Positions 14,595-58,944 of a stretch of 58,944 bases of DNA are shown in pieces. The DNA is from an uncultured Desulfococcus sp. GTDB lineage: Bacteria; Desulfobacterota; Desulfobacteria; Desulfobacterales; Desulfococcaceae. How positions within the stretch are numbered: position 1 is the stretch's first letter; every line of letters starts with the position of its first letter. The notes beneath the pieces are model-generated. The model was not told the DNA's origin and searched no databases. It saw only the letters and a list, made by a program, of their open reading frames with translations. Position numbers and translations under genes: made by a program. The DNA is taken from assembly GCA_913060435.1 (NCBI GenBank), contig CAJXSB010000001.1, positions 1 through 58,944 of the forward strand. The letters run 5' to 3'.

Positions 14595-14610
14595 CGCGGA
14601 AGGAGGAGAC

Positions 14611-51707: not shown

Positions 51708-52055
51708 TCACTCTTTGGGCGGGGCGACCTGGCGCAGTGCGTCGCCGGCCGTGGGTGCGATGGGCAGAAAGGTGTCGAATCCGGAAATTTCAAAGACTTC
51801 TCGGACGTAGTCCTGCATGGCGCAGAGGACCAGCTTGCCGTCCAGGCGCTTCAGGTCCTTGGCGGTTTTCAGGATGACCCGAAGGCCCGCACTGGAGATG
51901 TAGGCCAGGGCCTCGAAGTCGATGACCATGCGCCGGGCCCCGTTCTCGATGGCCCGGAAGACAGTGGTTTCCAGCTCGGGGGCCGTGTTCGAGTCGAGCC
52001 GTCCGTCAATCCGGAAAATCCATGCGTTTTCCTCTTGTGTTTCGTAGATTTCCAT
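51708..52055 (-). CDS. STAS anti-sigma factor antagonist
   Basis: GRLDSNTA, YISSAGLR and EVFEISG. Confidence 0.92.
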   Translation of the reverse strand: MEIYETQEENAWIFRIDGRLDSNTAPELETTVFRAIENGARRMVIDFEALAYISSAGLRVILKTAKDLKRLDGKLVLCAMQDYVREVFEISGFDTFLPIAPTAGDALRQVAPPKE

Positions 52056-52090
52056 AATCGCCTCTTGCTGCCTTCGCGTGTGACGTCGGT

Positions 52091-52510
52091 TCAGGGCAGC
52101 TGCTTTCTGAGGGTGATGATGTTGCAGGCGCCCTGCCGAAGATAGGTCATCTCATCGGTCAGGCGCCGTACGAGGTGGAGGCCGATGCCGCCGATCCGCC
52201 GCTCCTCGATGGTGCAGTCCTTTTCGGGGGATGCCGCCGAGGTGGGATTGAACGGGACGCCGTCATCCCGGATACAGATCGTCACCCATTTCCCCTCTCG
52301 GGTGATGGTGATCTCTACCTGGTGCAGGTCCATGTCCCGGAAGCCGCAGGATACGATATTGGTGAAAAGCTCGTCCAGAACCAGGTTGATTTCGAAGAGC
52401 GACTTTTCCGGGATGCCGGCTTCGGTCTGGAACTGCTCGAGACGCTTCCGCAGCGTTTCGAGTTCGGACAGGTCGTTTCGCAGCCGGAACCCGATATCGT
52501 GTCGTACCAT
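52091..52510 (-). CDS. Anti-sigma factor / RsbW-like kinase
   Basis: LVLDELFTNIV, IRDDGVPFNP and GGIGLHLV (HATPase_c). Confidence 0.9.
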   Translation of the reverse strand: MVRHDIGFRLRNDLSELETLRKRLEQFQTEAGIPEKSLFEINLVLDELFTNIVSCGFRDMDLHQVEITITREGKWVTICIRDDGVPFNPTSAASPEKDCTIEERRIGGIGLHLVRRLTDEMTYLRQGACNIITLRKQLP

Positions 52511-52535
52511 GTCGACCTTTCCGTATCGTTCCTTG

Positions 52536-53063
52536 CTATACCAGGCTGATCCCGACAACGGCTTTACCTTCCCGGGCCGGGTCTGCGTGCTGTGCAAGCA
52601 GCTTCTCCTCCCAAGCATGGATCCGCTCCGTGAGGGCCTGCAGGACGTCCGGGACCGTCGCCGGAAACTGCTGCAGCGCTCTGGAAAATTTTTCCCGGTC
52701 GAGGACCAGGCAGCTGGTATCGGTGACGGCCTTCAGCGAGAAGAGCCGGCGGCTCTTTCCGAGAAGCGACAGGGCCCCGATGAAATCCGGAGCACTGTAG
52801 TCCCGGAAAGTGTATTCCCCCTGGCCGTTGTCCCGGATGAGCCTTGCGGTCCCCGAGAGGATGATCAGCGCCTCCCCGTCCTCCTCCCCCTGGTGGAACA
52901 GGAAATCGCCGGCCCGGAAGATTTCTTTGGTGCAGAGGTAGGCGAAAACCTTGAGGGCCTCCAGGGGCAGTTTGGAGAAAAGATAGGTCTCCCTCAGGAT
53001 TTCCAGGTTTTCCTTGTACTCACAGGAGTGAAACGGCTCATGCTCTTCCATGGACGAGTTCAT
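52536..53063 (-). CDS. Cyclic-nucleotide-binding domain protein
   Basis: LFSKL, FRAGDFLFHQGE, IILSG, FIG and RLFSLKA. Confidence 0.85.
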   Translation of the reverse strand: MNSSMEEHEPFHSCEYKENLEILRETYLFSKLPLEALKVFAYLCTKEIFRAGDFLFHQGEEDGEALIILSGTARLIRDNGQGEYTFRDYSAPDFIGALSLLGKSRRLFSLKAVTDTSCLVLDREKFSRALQQFPATVPDVLQALTERIHAWEEKLLAQHADPAREGKAVVGISLV

Positions 53064-55551
53064 ACAGCAGTCCTTTTTTTTGAATCAGTTCGTCGTAGCT
53101 GCCGAGTTCACCGATTTTTCCCGACTTCATGACGGCAACATAATCATAGTTTTTAATGATATCCAGCCGGTGGGCGATGGAAATGACCGTGCTCCTCCCT
53201 TTCCAGTGGTGTTCGAGAAGGTTCTGGATCCTCGACTGGGACTTGTTGTCGAGGGCCGATGTGGCCTCATCCATGATCAATATTTTCGGAGCCTTGAGGA
53301 ACACCCTGGCGATGGCCAGCTTCTGCCGCTGCCCGCCGGAAAGGCGGTCGCCCTTGGAGCCGACCCTGAACTGCATCCCGATCTTGAGGATGGTCTCCAG
53401 TAGATCGGCCTGGATCAGCAGCTGGATGGCGCTCTGGGTGATTTTTTCCTGGGCTTTGGGGTGCTGGGACTTCATCTTTCCGAATAGGATGTTGTTGAGG
53501 ATGGTCTCCGAGGGAATATAGTCCGCGGCGTCGTAAAAGGAGACGATGCCGGGATAGTCCTCATCGACCTTTTCCCGGAACAGGGCGCGGCCCTCCAGGA
53601 TGAGGGATTCGAGGATGGACGGCAGCGCCACCATCTTGTGCTTCCCCGGCGAAAATCGCAGGGCCGCATCGAGGAGCCGCTGGCGATCCTCGTCGGACAG
53701 CTGGTGGAGACGCCGCCGCTTCAGGCGCTCGGCAAGCAGCGTGTAGGCTTCGAGTTCATCCGGAAGGATGGGGCTCTGTTCGAAGAAGATGGCATCATGG
53801 GGAAGGTTGCCCAGGATGTCGACCACCTGCTTAGCCACCTCCGCCCCCAGGCTCAACAAGGGGCGGGTCAGGTCGGCCTTGTCGAGGAACGCCAGAAAAT
53901 ATTCGTTTCGGCTGAGGTTCGCGACCGAGAATTCCGGGTGGTCGGTGGCGCCGAAGACGATGTTGTCGAGTACGGAGGAATGGTACAGATATGCTTTTTC
54001 GTCGAAAAACTCAATCAGGTCGTGGACATGCTCTCCGAATTGGTCCCGGAAGGCCTCGCGGATGTGGATGATCCGGTCGACGAGGTCGGCGTGATCGCGC
54101 TGGGCAAGGTGCATGTCGAGACCGAAGCGGAGCACGTCAACGAAGATGCCGGCCTGCTGCAGGGCGGCGATCATGTCGTCGAGGGTGGGGGCGCCCTCCG
54201 GTTCGGTGAACGCATCGAGGGCCGAGCAGGAATAGAGCAGGTTCTCCTCGATGGTTCCCTCAAAAATGAAGGGCGACTGGGAGACCGTCCCGACATTCTG
54301 TACAACGTCCTTCTTGGTGAGCGCCGACACCTCGCGGCCGCCGATCATGACCTGTCCGGACTGGTACCGGTACAGCTGGTTGAGGCAGAGGGCCAGGGTG
54401 CTCTTGCCGCTGCCCGAAAAGCCGACCACCGCCATGTGCTTCCCCGGCGCCAGGGAGAAGCTGACGCGGTCCAGCAGGCGGATGCCGCTGTCGGTGTAGA
54501 ACGAGAGGTCCTGCACCTCGATGCTGCCGTCCAGTTCGTAGGGGGGGCGGTCCTCCGGCGCCACTACGTGCTCGGGGGCGGCGTCGAAGTATTCCATCAC
54601 GCGCCGGTACCGCACCGCGGCGTCCTGGTATGCCTGGTAGAAGTCCAGAAGCTCCTTCCAGGGATCGTAGAGCTTCTCCTGGGCCGACAGGAAGGCGACC
54701 AAGGCCCCCAGTGCCAGCTGGCCGTTGATAGCGAGATATCCGCCGATGATGAAGATCAGAAACGGGCTGAGGGCGTTCAGAAAATTGTTGGTGGTTTTGA
54801 CGCCGAAGCGGTAAAGGTTCCAGACGATCCGGATCTTCTTCAGCTTCTCGACAATGGCGTCGTATTTGCGGTTTTCAATGGTATATGTCCCGTTGGTATG
54901 GATTTCGTGGATGCCGGAAATGGACTCTCCGATCTTGTCCGAGAGATGCCGCGTGATGTCCACCCGCTCTTTGTTGGCTCTATTTGTCCGTGCCTGAAGC
55001 CTCGGGACCAGGATCAGGACGATGGGATAGATGGAGAGTGAAACCGCTGCCAGGACCGGGTGGAGCCAGAAGAGATAACCGCCGAAGGCCAGGAGGGTCA
55101 GGATGTTGGTCACGGGAACGGCGATGGCCATTCCCACGAAGTCACCGGCCGCAGCCAACTCCGTGACGAGCGCGGATACCACCATGCCCGGTTGGGTCCT
55201 CCGGTAGAAGTTGACGGGGAGCGTCAGGATGTGATGGTAGACGGCCCCGCGCATCTCCGCCAGAGCGCGCTGGCCCAGGATGGTCTGAACGACGTTGGTC
55301 AGATACTTGAAGACCGTCGACACCAGTACGGCAGCCAGATAGATGCCGCAGTAAATGACCAGCAGGTCCGTCTTTTTCAGGAAGATCGACTCATTGATGA
55401 TCTTTTTCTGCATCTCCAGCGGGATAACCCGCGCGAAGACGGTGACGATGATGATCAAGAGCAGGGCGATCTGAAGTTTCCAGCTGCTGGAGCGCACCCA
55501 TGAGAAGAGCGACCGCTCCGTTACCGGCTGGGATTTCTGGCTGTTTTTCAT
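53038..55551 (-). CDS. ABC exporter-type permease + ATPase with a large insertion in the nucleotide-binding domain
   Basis: N-terminal six-helix membrane domain; GFSGSGKS and Q-loop; LSGGQ/MDEATSALD appear only after a long insert. Confidence 0.9.
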   Translation of the reverse strand: MKNSQKSQPVTERSLFSWVRSSSWKLQIALLLIIIVTVFARVIPLEMQKKIINESIFLKKTDLLVIYCGIYLAAVLVSTVFKYLTNVVQTILGQRALAEMRGAVYHHILTLPVNFYRRTQPGMVVSALVTELAAAGDFVGMAIAVPVTNILTLLAFGGYLFWLHPVLAAVSLSIYPIVLILVPRLQARTNRANKERVDITRHLSDKIGESISGIHEIHTNGTYTIENRKYDAIVEKLKKIRIVWNLYRFGVKTTNNFLNALSPFLIFIIGGYLAINGQLALGALVAFLSAQEKLYDPWKELLDFYQAYQDAAVRYRRVMEYFDAAPEHVVAPEDRPPYELDGSIEVQDLSFYTDSGIRLLDRVSFSLAPGKHMAVVGFSGSGKSTLALCLNQLYRYQSGQVMIGGREVSALTKKDVVQNVGTVSQSPFIFEGTIEENLLYSCSALDAFTEPEGAPTLDDMIAALQQAGIFVDVLRFGLDMHLAQRDHADLVDRIIHIREAFRDQFGEHVHDLIEFFDEKAYLYHSSVLDNIVFGATDHPEFSVANLSRNEYFLAFLDKADLTRPLLSLGAEVAKQVVDILGNLPHDAIFFEQSPILPDELEAYTLLAERLKRRRLHQLSDEDRQRLLDAALRFSPGKHKMVALPSILESLILEGRALFREKVDEDYPGIVSFYDAADYIPSETILNNILFGKMKSQHPKAQEKITQSAIQLLIQADLLETILKIGMQFRVGSKGDRLSGGQRQKLAIARVFLKAPKILIMDEATSALDNKSQSRIQNLLEHHWKGRSTVISIAHRLDIIKNYDYVAVMKSGKIGELGSYDELIQKKGLLYELVHGRA

Positions 55552-56185
55552 GCTGTTCTCGTATCACCTGGGTGGGTGGGCAGCGCGCTGGCGCCTTCCC
55601 GTGGATGTTGCGGGAGATGAACCGTCCATACGGTACGGACTTCCCGGTCGTAGAGCGGTTGAATGCGTGGTGCATCGAATGGGTAGACCGTCAACGCGCC
55701 GGCTTGCCGGCATCGTTATCGGAACCCTCACGTTCGTGCACTGGAGGTCACCTTGTTCCATCGGTTGGATGGAATCCGAAAACGGGGTATTTTCTGGAAG
55801 TCTATAGCATTGAACCGTCGGCGGCCAAAGGAAAATATTTGAAGCGGGTGTCGTTTGCCGAAGGCTGTGTTTCCAGGGATGGGTTCAGCAGTGCAAACGT
55901 TTAAATATGTATTTAGAACAATAGGATAAAAGGTTGTCGTCAAAAATCCTATAAAATAGTTCAAGATTTTAAACTTTATGGGAATTCAATACAACTAAAT
56001 GGAATTTAACTAAATTTCAGGTAAATGCAAGCATGTTTTTCGAATGGGGATATCAATGGGTCCACAGACATGAACGATCTGCAACCGGCTGTTCGATGAT
56101 TTTCTCGGAAGGCATTGGCTGGGTAAAAAAATAACCAATTTGAATAATTGGTAATAACAATTTTTACGGCAGCTGTTTCAATTTT

Positions 56186-56201
56186 TGGCAAGGCCCTTGC
56201 A
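56186..56201 (+). promoter_or_regulatory. Sigma-54 promoter (-24/-12), copy 1
   Basis: TGGC-AAGGCCC-TTGCA with canonical spacing. Confidence 0.75.
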
Positions 56202-56211
56202 TAATTGAATT

Positions 56212-56288
56212 GCAACCTAATAATTTTTTCATCTGTTCTCCTCCTTAACGGCTATTTGAACTCAGTTCATTTAGCCGTTTCCTTTTTT
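56212..56288 (+). ncRNA. Candidate sigma-54-dependent sRNA, copy 1
   Basis: Begins ~12 nt after the -12 element; U-rich 5' part, TTCTCCTCCTT, hairpin AACGGCTA...TAGCCGTT and a T-rich tail; no ORF. Confidence 0.65.
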
Positions 56289-56758
56289 GGGGCGTGCTTA
56301 TTCTGTAGCGCTCTGTTCACCAATGCTGATCGTCAGATATGTCACATATGCCACTCGCGTTGCGTTACATCTGTTCATCAGGGGGTTCTCTGTGCGGGAT
56401 GTTGGGCATCTTCCAGGGGCGCCATGGACCACTGACCATCGTTTTGAGGCTATCCGCCAAAGCGGTGTTTGCAAATACGAACAAAAAAATCACAATTAAA
56501 AACAAATGTCTAAATAGACATAGTTGAAAATCTCTAAACAATGTTCAATATTTTAAACACAATTGGATCGATTATAACAATCCTATATAATTGCTTAAAA
56601 TTAATTTTTCCCTGCGGCGGGGTACAGCAGCGTGAACCCAACCCTCCCCGTTGGCAGCCGCCATCAAGGCGGTGGGATGAGGATGGGGAACGTCGGAAAA
56701 AAATAGAGGACTGATATTTTTAACAAAAAATAGATCTATTGGCTGGGGGCGCAAGTTT

Positions 56759-56774
56759 TGGCAAGCCCCTTGCA
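56759..56774 (+). promoter_or_regulatory. Sigma-54 promoter, copy 2
   Basis: TGGC-AAGCCCC-TTGCA. Confidence 0.75.
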
Positions 56775-56784
56775 TTATCATTGT

Positions 56785-56859
56785 TCAACCTAATAATTTT
56801 TTCATCTGTTCTCCTCCTTAACGGCTAATTGAACTCGGTTCATTTAGCCGTTTCTTTTT
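56785..56859 (+). ncRNA. Candidate sigma-54-dependent sRNA, copy 2
   Basis: Near-identical to copy 1. Confidence 0.65.
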
Positions 56860-57320
56860 GGATCTGTTTGTTCTTGGATCTGTTTGTTCTACAGCGCTCT
56901 GTTCACGGACCCTGATCGCCGGACCGCTCACATATATTCACCGGGGAGTGTCCGCGCGGGATGCTCGGCATTTTCCAGGGACGCCATGGATCACTGACCA
57001 TCGCTTGGCGCCATCCGCCAAGGCGATGTTTGCAAATACGAACAAAAATATCATCATTATAAACAATCTGATAGATATTTATAGCCAAAAATCTCGAATT
57101 TAAGTTTAATATTTTAAACAGGTGTGAAGCCGTTATAACATTTCTATATGATTGCCTAAAACTGGTTTTTGCCCGCTGATGGGTACAGCAGCGTGAACCC
57201 AAGCCCCGCCGGACAGCCGCCATCGAGGCGGTGAGATGAGGGTGCGGAACGTCGCTAAAAAAAAATAGAAGATTGATATTTCAGCAAAAATAATGTTTTT
57301 TTGATAGAGGCTCCAAGTTT

Positions 57321-57336
57321 TGGCAAGCCCCTTGCA
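57321..57336 (+). promoter_or_regulatory. Sigma-54 promoter, copy 3
   Basis: TGGC-AAGCCCC-TTGCA. Confidence 0.75.
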
Positions 57337-57346
57337 TTATCTTTTC

Positions 57347-57420
57347 TCAACCTAATAATTTTTCATCTGTTCTCCTCCTTAACGGCTAATTGAACCCAGT
57401 TCATTTAGCCGTTTCCTTTT
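57347..57420 (+). ncRNA. Candidate sigma-54-dependent sRNA, copy 3
   Basis: Near-identical to copies 1 and 2; repeat similarity ends right after the T-tail. Confidence 0.65.
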
Positions 57421-57734
57421 GCTCCCGCATCGCTGCGGCGTCTGTTTCCCGGCCTGCAAGCGAACGTCGTCTTTTCCCACCCCCGATGGTTCCATGGGGT
57501 CATACCAATAATCATCTTGCAACATCCTGCAGCCTATTATATTGGTGAGTGGTCCCGCCGCGTCCCCCGATGCGTCGTCCGACGGATCGATGGATGCCTG
57601 CGGACCGACATCGAAGAATATTGGATTCCGCTTTCCTGTTTCGTCGCCCGATGGACGGCAGTGGCGCCGTGGGTGGATAACGGCGCTTTGCGAAGATCGA
57701 AAGTGGAGATCAACAGAGGACGGGTTGAAAGCAT

Positions 57735-58154
57735 ATGGGTACAGAAGAGCGCAACATCCTTCAGGCACATTCCATGACCTTTCTGGAAATGGCGTTTCGA
57801 ACCGACAAACAGGGGGTCATCGCGCATCCGGACGGACATGGGAAAAAGACCGGCGACTGTGGAGACAGCATCGAGATTTTCCTGGCCATCCAGGATGGAA
57901 AGATCGTGCAGTTTCGCTATCAGCTCGATGGGTGTTTGAACACCAATGCATGCTGCAACACCCTTGCCCTGATGGTGGAGGGCAGGGCGGTGGCGGAAGC
58001 CTGGGAGATCACCCCGGAAACGGTGGCGGCCTATCTCGAGACGCTGCCGCCGGACCATTACCACTGTGCAGAGCTGGCTGTCGGCACCCTCTATCTGGCG
58101 CTGATCAGCTATCAGGAGGTCCGCCGGGCGCCCTGGAAAAAGCTCTATCGGTAG
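57735..58154 (+). CDS. NifU/IscU N-terminal-like Fe-S scaffold family protein
   Basis: GDCGDSIEI, DGCLNTNAC and HCAELA; start uncertain. Confidence 0.8.
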   Translation: MGTEERNILQAHSMTFLEMAFRTDKQGVIAHPDGHGKKTGDCGDSIEIFLAIQDGKIVQFRYQLDGCLNTNACCNTLALMVEGRAVAEAWEITPETVAAYLETLPPDHYHCAELAVGTLYLALISYQEVRRAPWKKLYR

Positions 58155-58306
58155 TCCTGTCCGCCCGGTGCGGCACCGATTTGGTCTTGACACAAATGAG
58201 CATAATTGTTTATAGCTCTGTTCTTAAACAATAAATTCTTGCTGGACTGCTGCATCTGGTCGGAGCGCATTACTGCGCATTCATTTTGCGGTGATTGAGG
58301 GGGGGT

Positions 58307-58849
58307 ATGGGCTTCAAAACGGAGTTGGCGGAAAGAAAAACGTCCATTGTCAAGAAATGGTTCGATAAGGTCGTCGATACTTATCCTGCCGATACCTCCC
58401 GGTTTCTCAAGCGCCAGAAAGATCCCTTCAGCAATCCTGTCGGCAGCACCACCATCGAGGGGCTCACCAAAATATTTGAAGAGCTCCTGAAGGATGCCCC
58501 CGACAGCGACAGCCTCCAGGCCGCCGCGGATCCCATTGTCCGCATCAGGGCGGTTCAAACCATGTTTTCTCCCTCCCAGGCCGTCGGCTTTCCGTATTTC
58601 CTGAAAACCATCATCAGAGAAGAGTTCGAGCGCCAGTTGAAAGAGATCGCTCCGCTCCGGGAGCTGATGGCCTTCGAGCTGGAAATCGACAAGCTCAGCC
58701 TGGTGACGTTCAACATATACATGAAATGCAGGGAGACGGTCCTCAAGCTGAGAACCAATCTGGAGAAAGAACGGCTGTACAAAGCCTTTTCGAGAGCGGG
58801 TTTGATACAGGAGATCCCGGAGGACGGCCCGGATCTTGAGGAAAAATAA
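58307..58849 (+). CDS. RsbRD N-terminal domain protein
   Basis: KWF..VDTYP...KDPFSNPVG, IVRIRAVQ..SPSQAV and YMKCRE; this family typically precedes dsrMKJOP in sulfate reducers. Confidence 0.85.
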   Translation: MGFKTELAERKTSIVKKWFDKVVDTYPADTSRFLKRQKDPFSNPVGSTTIEGLTKIFEELLKDAPDSDSLQAAADPIVRIRAVQTMFSPSQAVGFPYFLKTIIREEFERQLKEIAPLRELMAFELEIDKLSLVTFNIYMKCRETVLKLRTNLEKERLYKAFSRAGLIQEIPEDGPDLEEK

Positions 58850-58914
58850 TATTAATCATCATGAAGAGGCTCCGGGGATCCGTCCCCCAGGGGCAGTGGA
58901 GTGAGGAAGGTTGT

Positions 58915-58944
58915 ATGAACATTAAGTACATGTTTTCCCTCTTG
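58915..58944 (+). CDS. Start of a membrane protein, probably DsrM (truncated by window end)
   Basis: RBS GAGGAAGG, then MNIKYMFSLL; identity inferred from synteny only. Confidence 0.4.
   Translation, partial: MNIKYMFSLL

Follow-up and report, generated by a model that had tools for sequence, protein, structure and literature searches.

Porin repression by small RNAs (sRNAs) follows a familiar logic, and MicF, VrrA and OmrA/B all act in this way. Multi-copy sRNAs with sigma-54 promoters are known from Vibrio, where Qrr1-5 answer to one NtrC-type activator, LuxO, and are redundant or additive in effect; they are Hfq-dependent, dispersed in the genome and aimed at quorum regulators. To our knowledge, almost no trans-acting sRNA of the sulfate reducers has an assigned target. 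The major porin of D. vulgaris is presumably DVU0799.

MicA and RybB are sigma-E-dependent porin-repressing sRNAs (PMC1804206). Pxr of Myxococcus is a processed RNA of 108 nt with three stem-loops that acts downstream of a sigma-54 response regulator, Nla19/PxrR; its host lacks Hfq, and in Cystobacter it occurs as tandem paralogues with their own promoters (PMC5568312). Within the Desulfobacterota, four sigma-54-dependent ncRNAs have been reported in D. vulgaris (PMC4641369; PMC3333781) and two unannotated ones in D. alaskensis G20 (PMC4045070); two of these RNAs lie directly downstream of a regulator gene, and the accessible parts of the three reports state neither function nor targets. A preprint on DseA presents its finding as the earliest regulatory role assigned to any Desulfovibrio sRNA (10.1101/803072).

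The locus described here carries three tandem sRNA genes that, with a probability that we put at roughly 0.72, repress porin and OmpA-family mRNAs by pairing and receive their signal via a conserved two-component system. By the sequence tests that we ran, the RNA is nearest to MicA, RybB and MicF in its predicted action and to Pxr, Qrr and the Desulfovibrio ncRNAs in its predicted wiring, and is a member of none of these groups. It resembles Qrr1-5 in being a multi-copy sigma-54 sRNA with a predicted NtrC-type activator, but has no Rfam similarity to them. With MicA, RybB and NcS25 of Burkholderia it shares the predicted design, in which the 5' seed of a small trans-acting RNA covers the translation start of an outer-membrane protein (OMP) message, and a stress or two-component input (PMC1804206; PMC10117139); its seed is conserved and complementary to the initiation region of an OMP mRNA. 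It differs from MicA, RybB and MicF in matching no Rfam family, in its long duplex, in the repeated seed boxes of its target leader and in its promoter, which is of the sigma-54 type with enhancer sites and not a sigma-E promoter. RpoE was found above the curated cut-off in none of five genomes, and ECF-like matches exist. Hfq was likewise found in none of 61 genomes (five control genomes were positive) and ProQ in none of five. The position downstream of a sigma-54 response regulator, the tandem paralogues with their own promoters and the host without Hfq recall Pxr (PMC5568312), but the Pxr family (RF01812) matched none of five RNA-carrying genomes at E<=1, and a single hairpin is found here in place of three. 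The Desulfovibrio ncRNAs share the phylum, the sigma-54 promoters and, for two of them, the place behind a regulator gene (PMC4641369; PMC3333781; PMC4045070).

Three predicted tandem transcription units

The window, by which we mean the whole 58.9-kb stretch of DNA analyzed, contains the pattern TGGC-N7-TTGCA exactly three times, at 56186, 56759 and 57321; shuffled windows gave a mean of 0.54 occurrences and at least three in 1 of 100 shuffles. These predicted sigma-54 -24/-12 promoters (56186..56201, 56759..56774 and 57321..57336, all on the plus strand) correspond to the three promoter-like units of the original prediction, whose proposed transcription starts at 56212, 56785 and 57347 agree with the -12 C at 56200, 56773 and 57335. 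The array fills the gap between an ABC-transporter gene (minus strand, ending at 55551) and a NifU-like gene (57735). The gap had been described as AT-rich and gene-free, and both descriptions held: GC content is 0.40-0.46 over 55700-57300 as compared to 0.61 genome-wide, and none of the six small ORFs in the gap has a Pfam match at cut-off.

The predicted copy 1 (56212..56288, plus strand, ~77 nt) consists of a 5' seed, a U-run, an anti-AUG segment, an anti-Shine-Dalgarno (anti-SD) segment, a terminator hairpin at 56247-56279 and a U tail. Copy 2 is predicted at 56785..56859 (plus strand, ~75 nt, hairpin 56820-56852) and is 97% identical to both copies of the related genome G001. Copy 3, at 57347..57420 (plus strand, ~74 nt, hairpin 57381-57413), has a U-run shorter by one U. 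The hairpins, which had been proposed from the letters alone, fold with z-scores of -4.9, -5.5 and -6.6, leaving the first ~35 nt of each RNA unpaired in the predicted fold and a U tail 3' of the hairpin; copies 1 and 3 have bulged hairpins, which a simple scan for terminators did not pick up. Over the ~75-nt cores the copies are 92-95% identical, as anticipated, but the differences are not confined to loop, bulge and tail. The T-run before CATC, which had been given as seven, is six, six and five letters long in copies 1, 2 and 3, so that copy 3 differs inside the pairing arm as well. The two spacers are indeed more divergent than the cores (73% identity), and the repeat unit spans the entire ~570 bp and not just the core. 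Each unit is, on these predictions, a real and whole transcription unit with an enhancer palindrome, a sigma-54 promoter, an RNA of ~75 nt and a terminator hairpin.

Transcription of the RNAs is predicted to run toward the NifU-like gene (PF01592, 57735-58154), with the terminator reached first. That gene is followed by an RsbRD_N gene (PF14361, 58295-58849) and, from 58916 onward, by a gene start that resembles what we take to be dsrM; the same gene order recurs in four other genomes (G002, G004, G009 and G012). On the other side, downstream of the ABC transporter (51708-53063), translations alone suggest STAS, anti-sigma-like ATPase and cNMP-binding genes.

Conservation of the RNA family

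An Rfam scan of positions 54000-58944 gave best matches of 16-23 bits against cut-offs of 50-75, and ten homologous loci gave nothing but one 29-bit chance match. A BLAST search with a complete unit as the query had matches in 44 of 61 genomes (its own genome counted), nearly always through promoter and core only, and some of these matches are target leaders and not RNA genes; the spacers found nothing in relatives bar four short matches at E>0.004. With a covariance model the family was detected in 50 of the 61 genomes of the order, including 16 of 16 in the host family, and in 9 of 151 genomes drawn from the phylum. The 65 matches of the model include one OmpA-family leader and one unit in G059 (L102:2478-2589) that has the canonical seed and hairpin, lacks the anti-SD arm and shows no promoter at the usual distance. 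Among the matches listed (the best 80 of 119), the family occurs in Desulfobacterales such as Desulfonema magnum, Desulfosarcina, Desulfatibacillum and Desulfatirhabdium. Tandem doubling recurs in G001, G002, Desulfonema magnum and L197.

Two-sided changes were seen at all 13 hairpin pairs in 70 model-aligned sequences, a level reached by none of 500 shuffles, although this alignment had been fitted to the structure and included the training set; in an unfitted alignment of 23 sequences, 7 of the 13 pairs covary. Between genomes of the genus the cores are 90-97% identical while the 250 nt upstream drop to 54-63%. Our literature search, outside subscription journals and bioRxiv supplements, returned no paper describing the RNA. 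A conserved, uncatalogued sRNA family with named predicted targets is thus well supported by the comparisons presented here.

Evidence for a peptide on the opposite strand was weighed against this reading. The reverse strand does read as an SD, a spacer and ATG-AAA-AAA, with a six-codon frame in 18 of 82 homologues, but a toxin or leader peptide, or else an inert inverted copy of a porin start, is very improbable, since the frames vary (22, 6 and 4 codons in the three copies and 6 to more than 30 across the 82 homologues) and so give no conserved peptide or short ORF of the type I toxin or leader kind, the ATG is missing from the G057 homologue, the orientation of promoter and U tail is that of the plus strand, and a relic would neither keep a core identity of 90-100% while the flanks diverge nor track porin leaders across families. 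The conserved reverse-strand peptide, which the original prediction had named as its own possible refutation, was accordingly rejected.

Enhancer palindromes and the kinase/regulator pair

TGGC and TTGCA are invariant in all 23 aligned copies, and the -12 element lies 10-11 nt from the conserved 5' end of the RNA in most homologues; the -24/-12 elements thus stand at fixed spacing from a start predicted ~12 nt downstream, and rpoN is present. An element that had escaped the original prediction lies ~220-225 bp 5' of every promoter, namely an enhancer palindrome with the consensus GGTTCA-N6-TGAACC. The distal palindromes of copies 1, 2 and 3 (55958..55975, 56542..56559 and 57103..57120) are predicted activator sites and are, in this order, the three top-scoring matches in the assembly to a matrix trained on homologous upstream regions, the source locus among them. 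None of the other matches scoring above 11 in the assembly had a sigma-54 promoter behind it. A second, weaker palindrome stands near -145 (about -125 to -170) in homologues. Copy 1 has such a proximal site at 56059..56076 (score 9.6, at -127), and weak, degenerate versions were recognized by pattern in copy 2 (56621..56638, at -136, below the matrix threshold) and copy 3 (57182..57199, at -137). Palindromes were present in 23 of 24 training regions; a separate pattern scan, which shared some genomes with the training set, recovered them at 69 of its 80 loci.

Of the 67 homologues whose flank was long enough, 21 have the gene of an NtrC-type response regulator ending just 5' of the RNA on the same strand, behind that of a membrane kinase. 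That this regulator acts on the palindromes is likely, the prediction being drawn from adjacency only. Both genes are absent from the source assembly. Both congeners carry the regulator elsewhere in the genome (76-77% identity to the query), and contig C193 (G000:C193:1) of the source assembly starts inside a TPR gene, the regulator's usual neighbor in the congeners; with the pair present in both congeners and the contig broken in the neighboring gene, the kinase and regulator are likely missing here through an assembly gap.

In 43 of 151 genomes from the phylum, the sensor part of the kinase occurs as a single copy. This N-terminal part matched no Pfam family, and an atlas search returned no function, with one cluster carrying sCache_3_2 on 20% of its members. 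At 20 kinase loci outside the order, the end of the regulator fell within the examined stretch in 12, of which four (G184, G190, G193 and G095) show a promoter, a C/U-rich arm and a hairpin behind it. The kinase-regulator operon adjoins the envelope genes mlaEFD in G017 (L161; L160 and L162 are further operon loci) and pilMNOPQ, also envelope genes, in G017, G007 and G031. The regulator match of G040 (L336, G040:C93:8933-10297) holds one TAG stop.

Probable relation to DVU3221/DVU3220 and the input signal

The kinase and regulator are probably orthologues of DVU3221 and DVU3220 of D. vulgaris, as judged by gene order, motif, length and reported range rather than by direct alignment. The order pgi-kinase-regulator was seen in G096 and G130, the regulator has the GSFTGA motif and 459 aa of DVU3220, and regulators of the DVU3220 type have been reported in Desulfobacterium and Desulfatibacillum (PMC3333781). 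Two other regulators were considered. DVU0679 was ruled out by its different site (GTGCG-N4-CGCAC) and DNA-binding domain. For DVU3305 the helix-turn-helix row matches, while length, AAA motif, site and gene order favor DVU3220. The helix-turn-helix that matches our regulators is listed under DVU3305 and not DVU3220 in supplement 2 of PMC4641369, where the row labelled DVU3305 thus matches regulators with the length, motif and gene order of DVU3220; the DNA-binding-domain rows of the two proteins may have been swapped there.

A palindrome pair and a sigma-54 promoter also occur in G096, a Desulfovibrio-like genome, together with a hairpin and a short C/U arm. This arm pairs over 16 bp with one of the genome's three DESULF_POR1 genes (-29.0 vs -21.3 and -13.6), a comparison confined to these three genes. 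According to the supplement of PMC10102598, rpoN, DVU3220, DVU3221 and pgi were scored essential in D. vulgaris, while DVU0799 and DVU3305 were not.

DVU3220 has been proposed as a nitrogen regulator, and the circuit could then answer to nitrogen status and not to the envelope. In favor of such an input, DVU3220 shifted the amt-PII operon in a gel assay (PMC3333781), and the start of the PII gene ranks 18th with accessibility in the target scan of the source genome (see below). According to the same report, however, the amt-PII target had been picked by guess, and chip mapping failed (PMC3333781); in our assembly, the three best palindrome matches belong to the RNA genes and the others above 11 lack a sigma-54 promoter, and the N-terminal sensor part of the kinase belongs to no Pfam family. 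A nitrogen signal appears unlikely to us. It concerns the input only and does not exclude repression by pairing.

Predicted targets in the source genome

The 36-nt arm of the RNA was paired with 3,335 start regions, the genes being those of a crude in-house caller and the duplex energies favoring G-rich starts. Rank 1 fell to the gene of an OmpA-family exported protein (G000:C4:13844-14779, minus strand) and rank 2 to the gene of a 421-aa porin (G000:C148:7255-8520, minus strand). When the top 500 were rescored with accessibility, the OmpA-family and porin starts reached -30.9 and -27.4, and the third gene -23.3. The predicted duplexes extend over about 30 bp (-33 to -35 kcal/mol) and cover the Shine-Dalgarno sequence, the AUG and the first codons of both targets. 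The three RNA copies are predicted to differ by no more than about 1.5 kcal/mol at either ribosome-binding site. With the 5' half alone (seed, U-run and anti-AUG) the porin ranked 1 and the OmpA-family gene 3, as compared to 254 and 71 with the anti-SD half alone and 70 to 451 with three shuffles of the 5' half. These half-by-half ranks indicate that specificity comes mostly from the 5' half of the RNA.

The exact complement of the first 11 nt of the RNA occurs five times in the 4.58 Mb assembly, in the three RNA genes and in two boxes of the porin leader. The raw count of this 11-mer over 61 genomes showed no enrichment relative to a reversed control, and only its position in porin leaders is informative. 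Of 15 first-copy porin leaders in the host family, 14 have one or two copies of the box TTATTAGG and the remaining one, that of G003, has related boxes; the box is absent from all five second tandem porin paralogues. The OmpA-family start keeps its complement in most family orthologues (-24.6 to -34.7 over 15 full-length starts), with a weaker one in G030 (-18.3). The 421-aa protein matches PF13372, with DESULF_POR1 below cut-off, and its model is a beta-barrel (pLDDT 81) with a fold like AlgE and Campylobacter MOMP; an atlas search with the N-terminal part of the OmpA-family protein returned no function. Taken together, the RNA likely targets an outer-membrane porin message and an OmpA-family message, both encoded outside the window.

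The original prediction had pointed to a 10-nt complement at 14600-14609. The site is real and lies at the start of a periplasmic binding protein gene (PF01497; 14600..14630, plus strand), but its standing as a target is minor at most, with rank 29 by duplex energy and rank 10 (-20.4) with accessibility.

Breadth and direction of control

A rival reading makes the RNA a broad brake that acts either on exported proteins or on any strong ribosome-binding site. It would read SD plus AUG-AAA-AAA, the usual signal-peptide start, and the porin would be only its strongest target. Genes with a signal peptide made up 17 of the top 50 as compared to 239 of 3,335 overall, and 7 of 50 with the anti-SD half alone or 7-11 of 50 with a shuffled 5' half, and long matches to the RNA also occur at the starts of several other secreted-protein genes in relatives. 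The signal-peptide caller was crude, however, the top two genes are separated from the rest by at least 4 kcal/mol, and twelve other starts with a strong SD and ATGAAAAAA score only -14 to -27. As a full account this is rather improbable; as a weaker second tier it is compatible with repression of the porin and OmpA-family genes. Exported-protein starts with long complements or seed boxes were noted at L140 (G015), L136 (G004), L141 (G012), L139 (G029) and L150 (G009); their products include a VWA/PKD protein, a PF13557 barrel, a lytic transglycosylase and an unknown secreted protein.

The RNA might instead activate or stabilize the same mRNAs on binding, for example if the leader were opened or protected against nucleases. 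In favor of this, the upstream seed boxes are not within the ribosome footprint, part of the ribosome-binding site is included in the predicted fold of the porin leader (-21.5 kcal/mol), and an extra SD-like element stands at -80 to -99 in the leaders of both targets. The longest duplex, on the other hand, spans SD, AUG and first codons in both targets, and the essentiality of rpoN and of the probable regulator pair in D. vulgaris, together with the dispensability of DVU0799, fits the loss of a repressor better (PMC10102598). Activation seems to us slightly less probable again than the broad brake, and repression is the direction that the position of pairing suggests.

The extra element, RGGAGGTG, is a second strong SD-like sequence 80-99 nt 5' of both target starts (G000:C148 about 8619-8612 and G000:C4 about 14859-14852, both minus strand, recognized by pattern), and no conserved ORF follows it. 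Within -120 to -55 the element was seen in just 12 of 3,153 genes. A related element is present in 14 of 15 first-copy porin leaders (15 of 15 with a looser pattern) and in none of five second paralogues. Its role could be that of a ribosome site that stabilizes the mRNA, or it could belong to a second site for RNA binding.

Joint change of RNA and porin leader

Among nine orthologue-chosen pairs from nine families, cognate pairing was stronger than non-cognate pairing (permutation p 4e-4 to 8e-4), kinship being handled by taking one pair per family only. With six porin-like targets added by DNA match, p was 1.5e-5 to 2.4e-4, and none of 150 composition-preserving shuffles in each mode reached the observed cognate value. 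An altered 5' arm is mirrored in the genome's own leader in G032, G033, G044, G050 and G058. The exceptions are G036 and G053, where the seed mismatches the upstream leader and the cognate pair ranks 6 and 9 of 9.

For a blind test, the sequence behind the regulator was inspected in five genomes where the covariance model had failed. In G042, a divergent RNA found by regulator adjacency alone paired best with its own porin start (-24.4, next -19.8, among 33 leaders), and this leader was bound better by its own RNA than by 15 other RNAs (best of those -19.7). G018, G028, G035 and G040 yielded no RNA, either behind the regulator or at palindrome matches (21 sites examined); the leaders of G040 and G018 contain seed-like boxes, of which the porin leader of G040 has three. 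Across nine families, the predicted pairing thus shows that RNA and porin leader change together.

Proposed mechanism

All computational tests agree with the original proposal of sibling sRNAs of the sigma-54 type that would act at ribosome-binding sites, and support it at this level. In the mechanism that we favor, the membrane kinase would phosphorylate the NtrC-type activator, which would bind the palindromes and open the sigma-54 promoters, yielding an RNA of ~75 nt with an unstructured 5' arm. The 5' seed would dock on the repeated boxes of the porin leader, and a long imperfect duplex would then cover the Shine-Dalgarno sequence, the AUG and the first codons. Initiation would be blocked and mRNA decay would probably follow, with no need of Hfq or ProQ. 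Triplication would raise the dose of RNA and leave the targets unchanged, as suggested by the near-equal energies of the three copies at both ribosome-binding sites. Our best guess for the input signal is envelope load.

Tentatively, a two-component system retained in much of the Desulfobacterota might have this RNA as its chief output. The RNA would be the counterpart, Hfq-free and wired to sigma-54, of the sigma-E/MicA-RybB safety valve: several RNA molecules would load onto the repeated boxes of a single porin mRNA, at a dose fixed by gene copy number. We regard this wider view as possible rather than probable. If it is true, losing the RNA would leave the envelope with too much porin. This would account for the essentiality of rpoN, DVU3220 and DVU3221 in D. 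vulgaris, and deletion of the targeted porin would be predicted to rescue that organism. The circuit would govern, without Hfq, how permeable the outer membrane is in a major group of sulfate reducers from sediments. The circuit is spelled out with testable base pairs, from sensor, activator site and promoter to the RNA and its two predicted targets.

Dispersed second copies of the RNA with altered arms were observed at L103 (G002:C16), L134 (G044:C19), L070, L073, L079, L090, L096 and L097. The copy L103 of G002 is without the anti-AUG triplet and the copy L134 of G044 has a different seed, and targets may be split between such paralogues.
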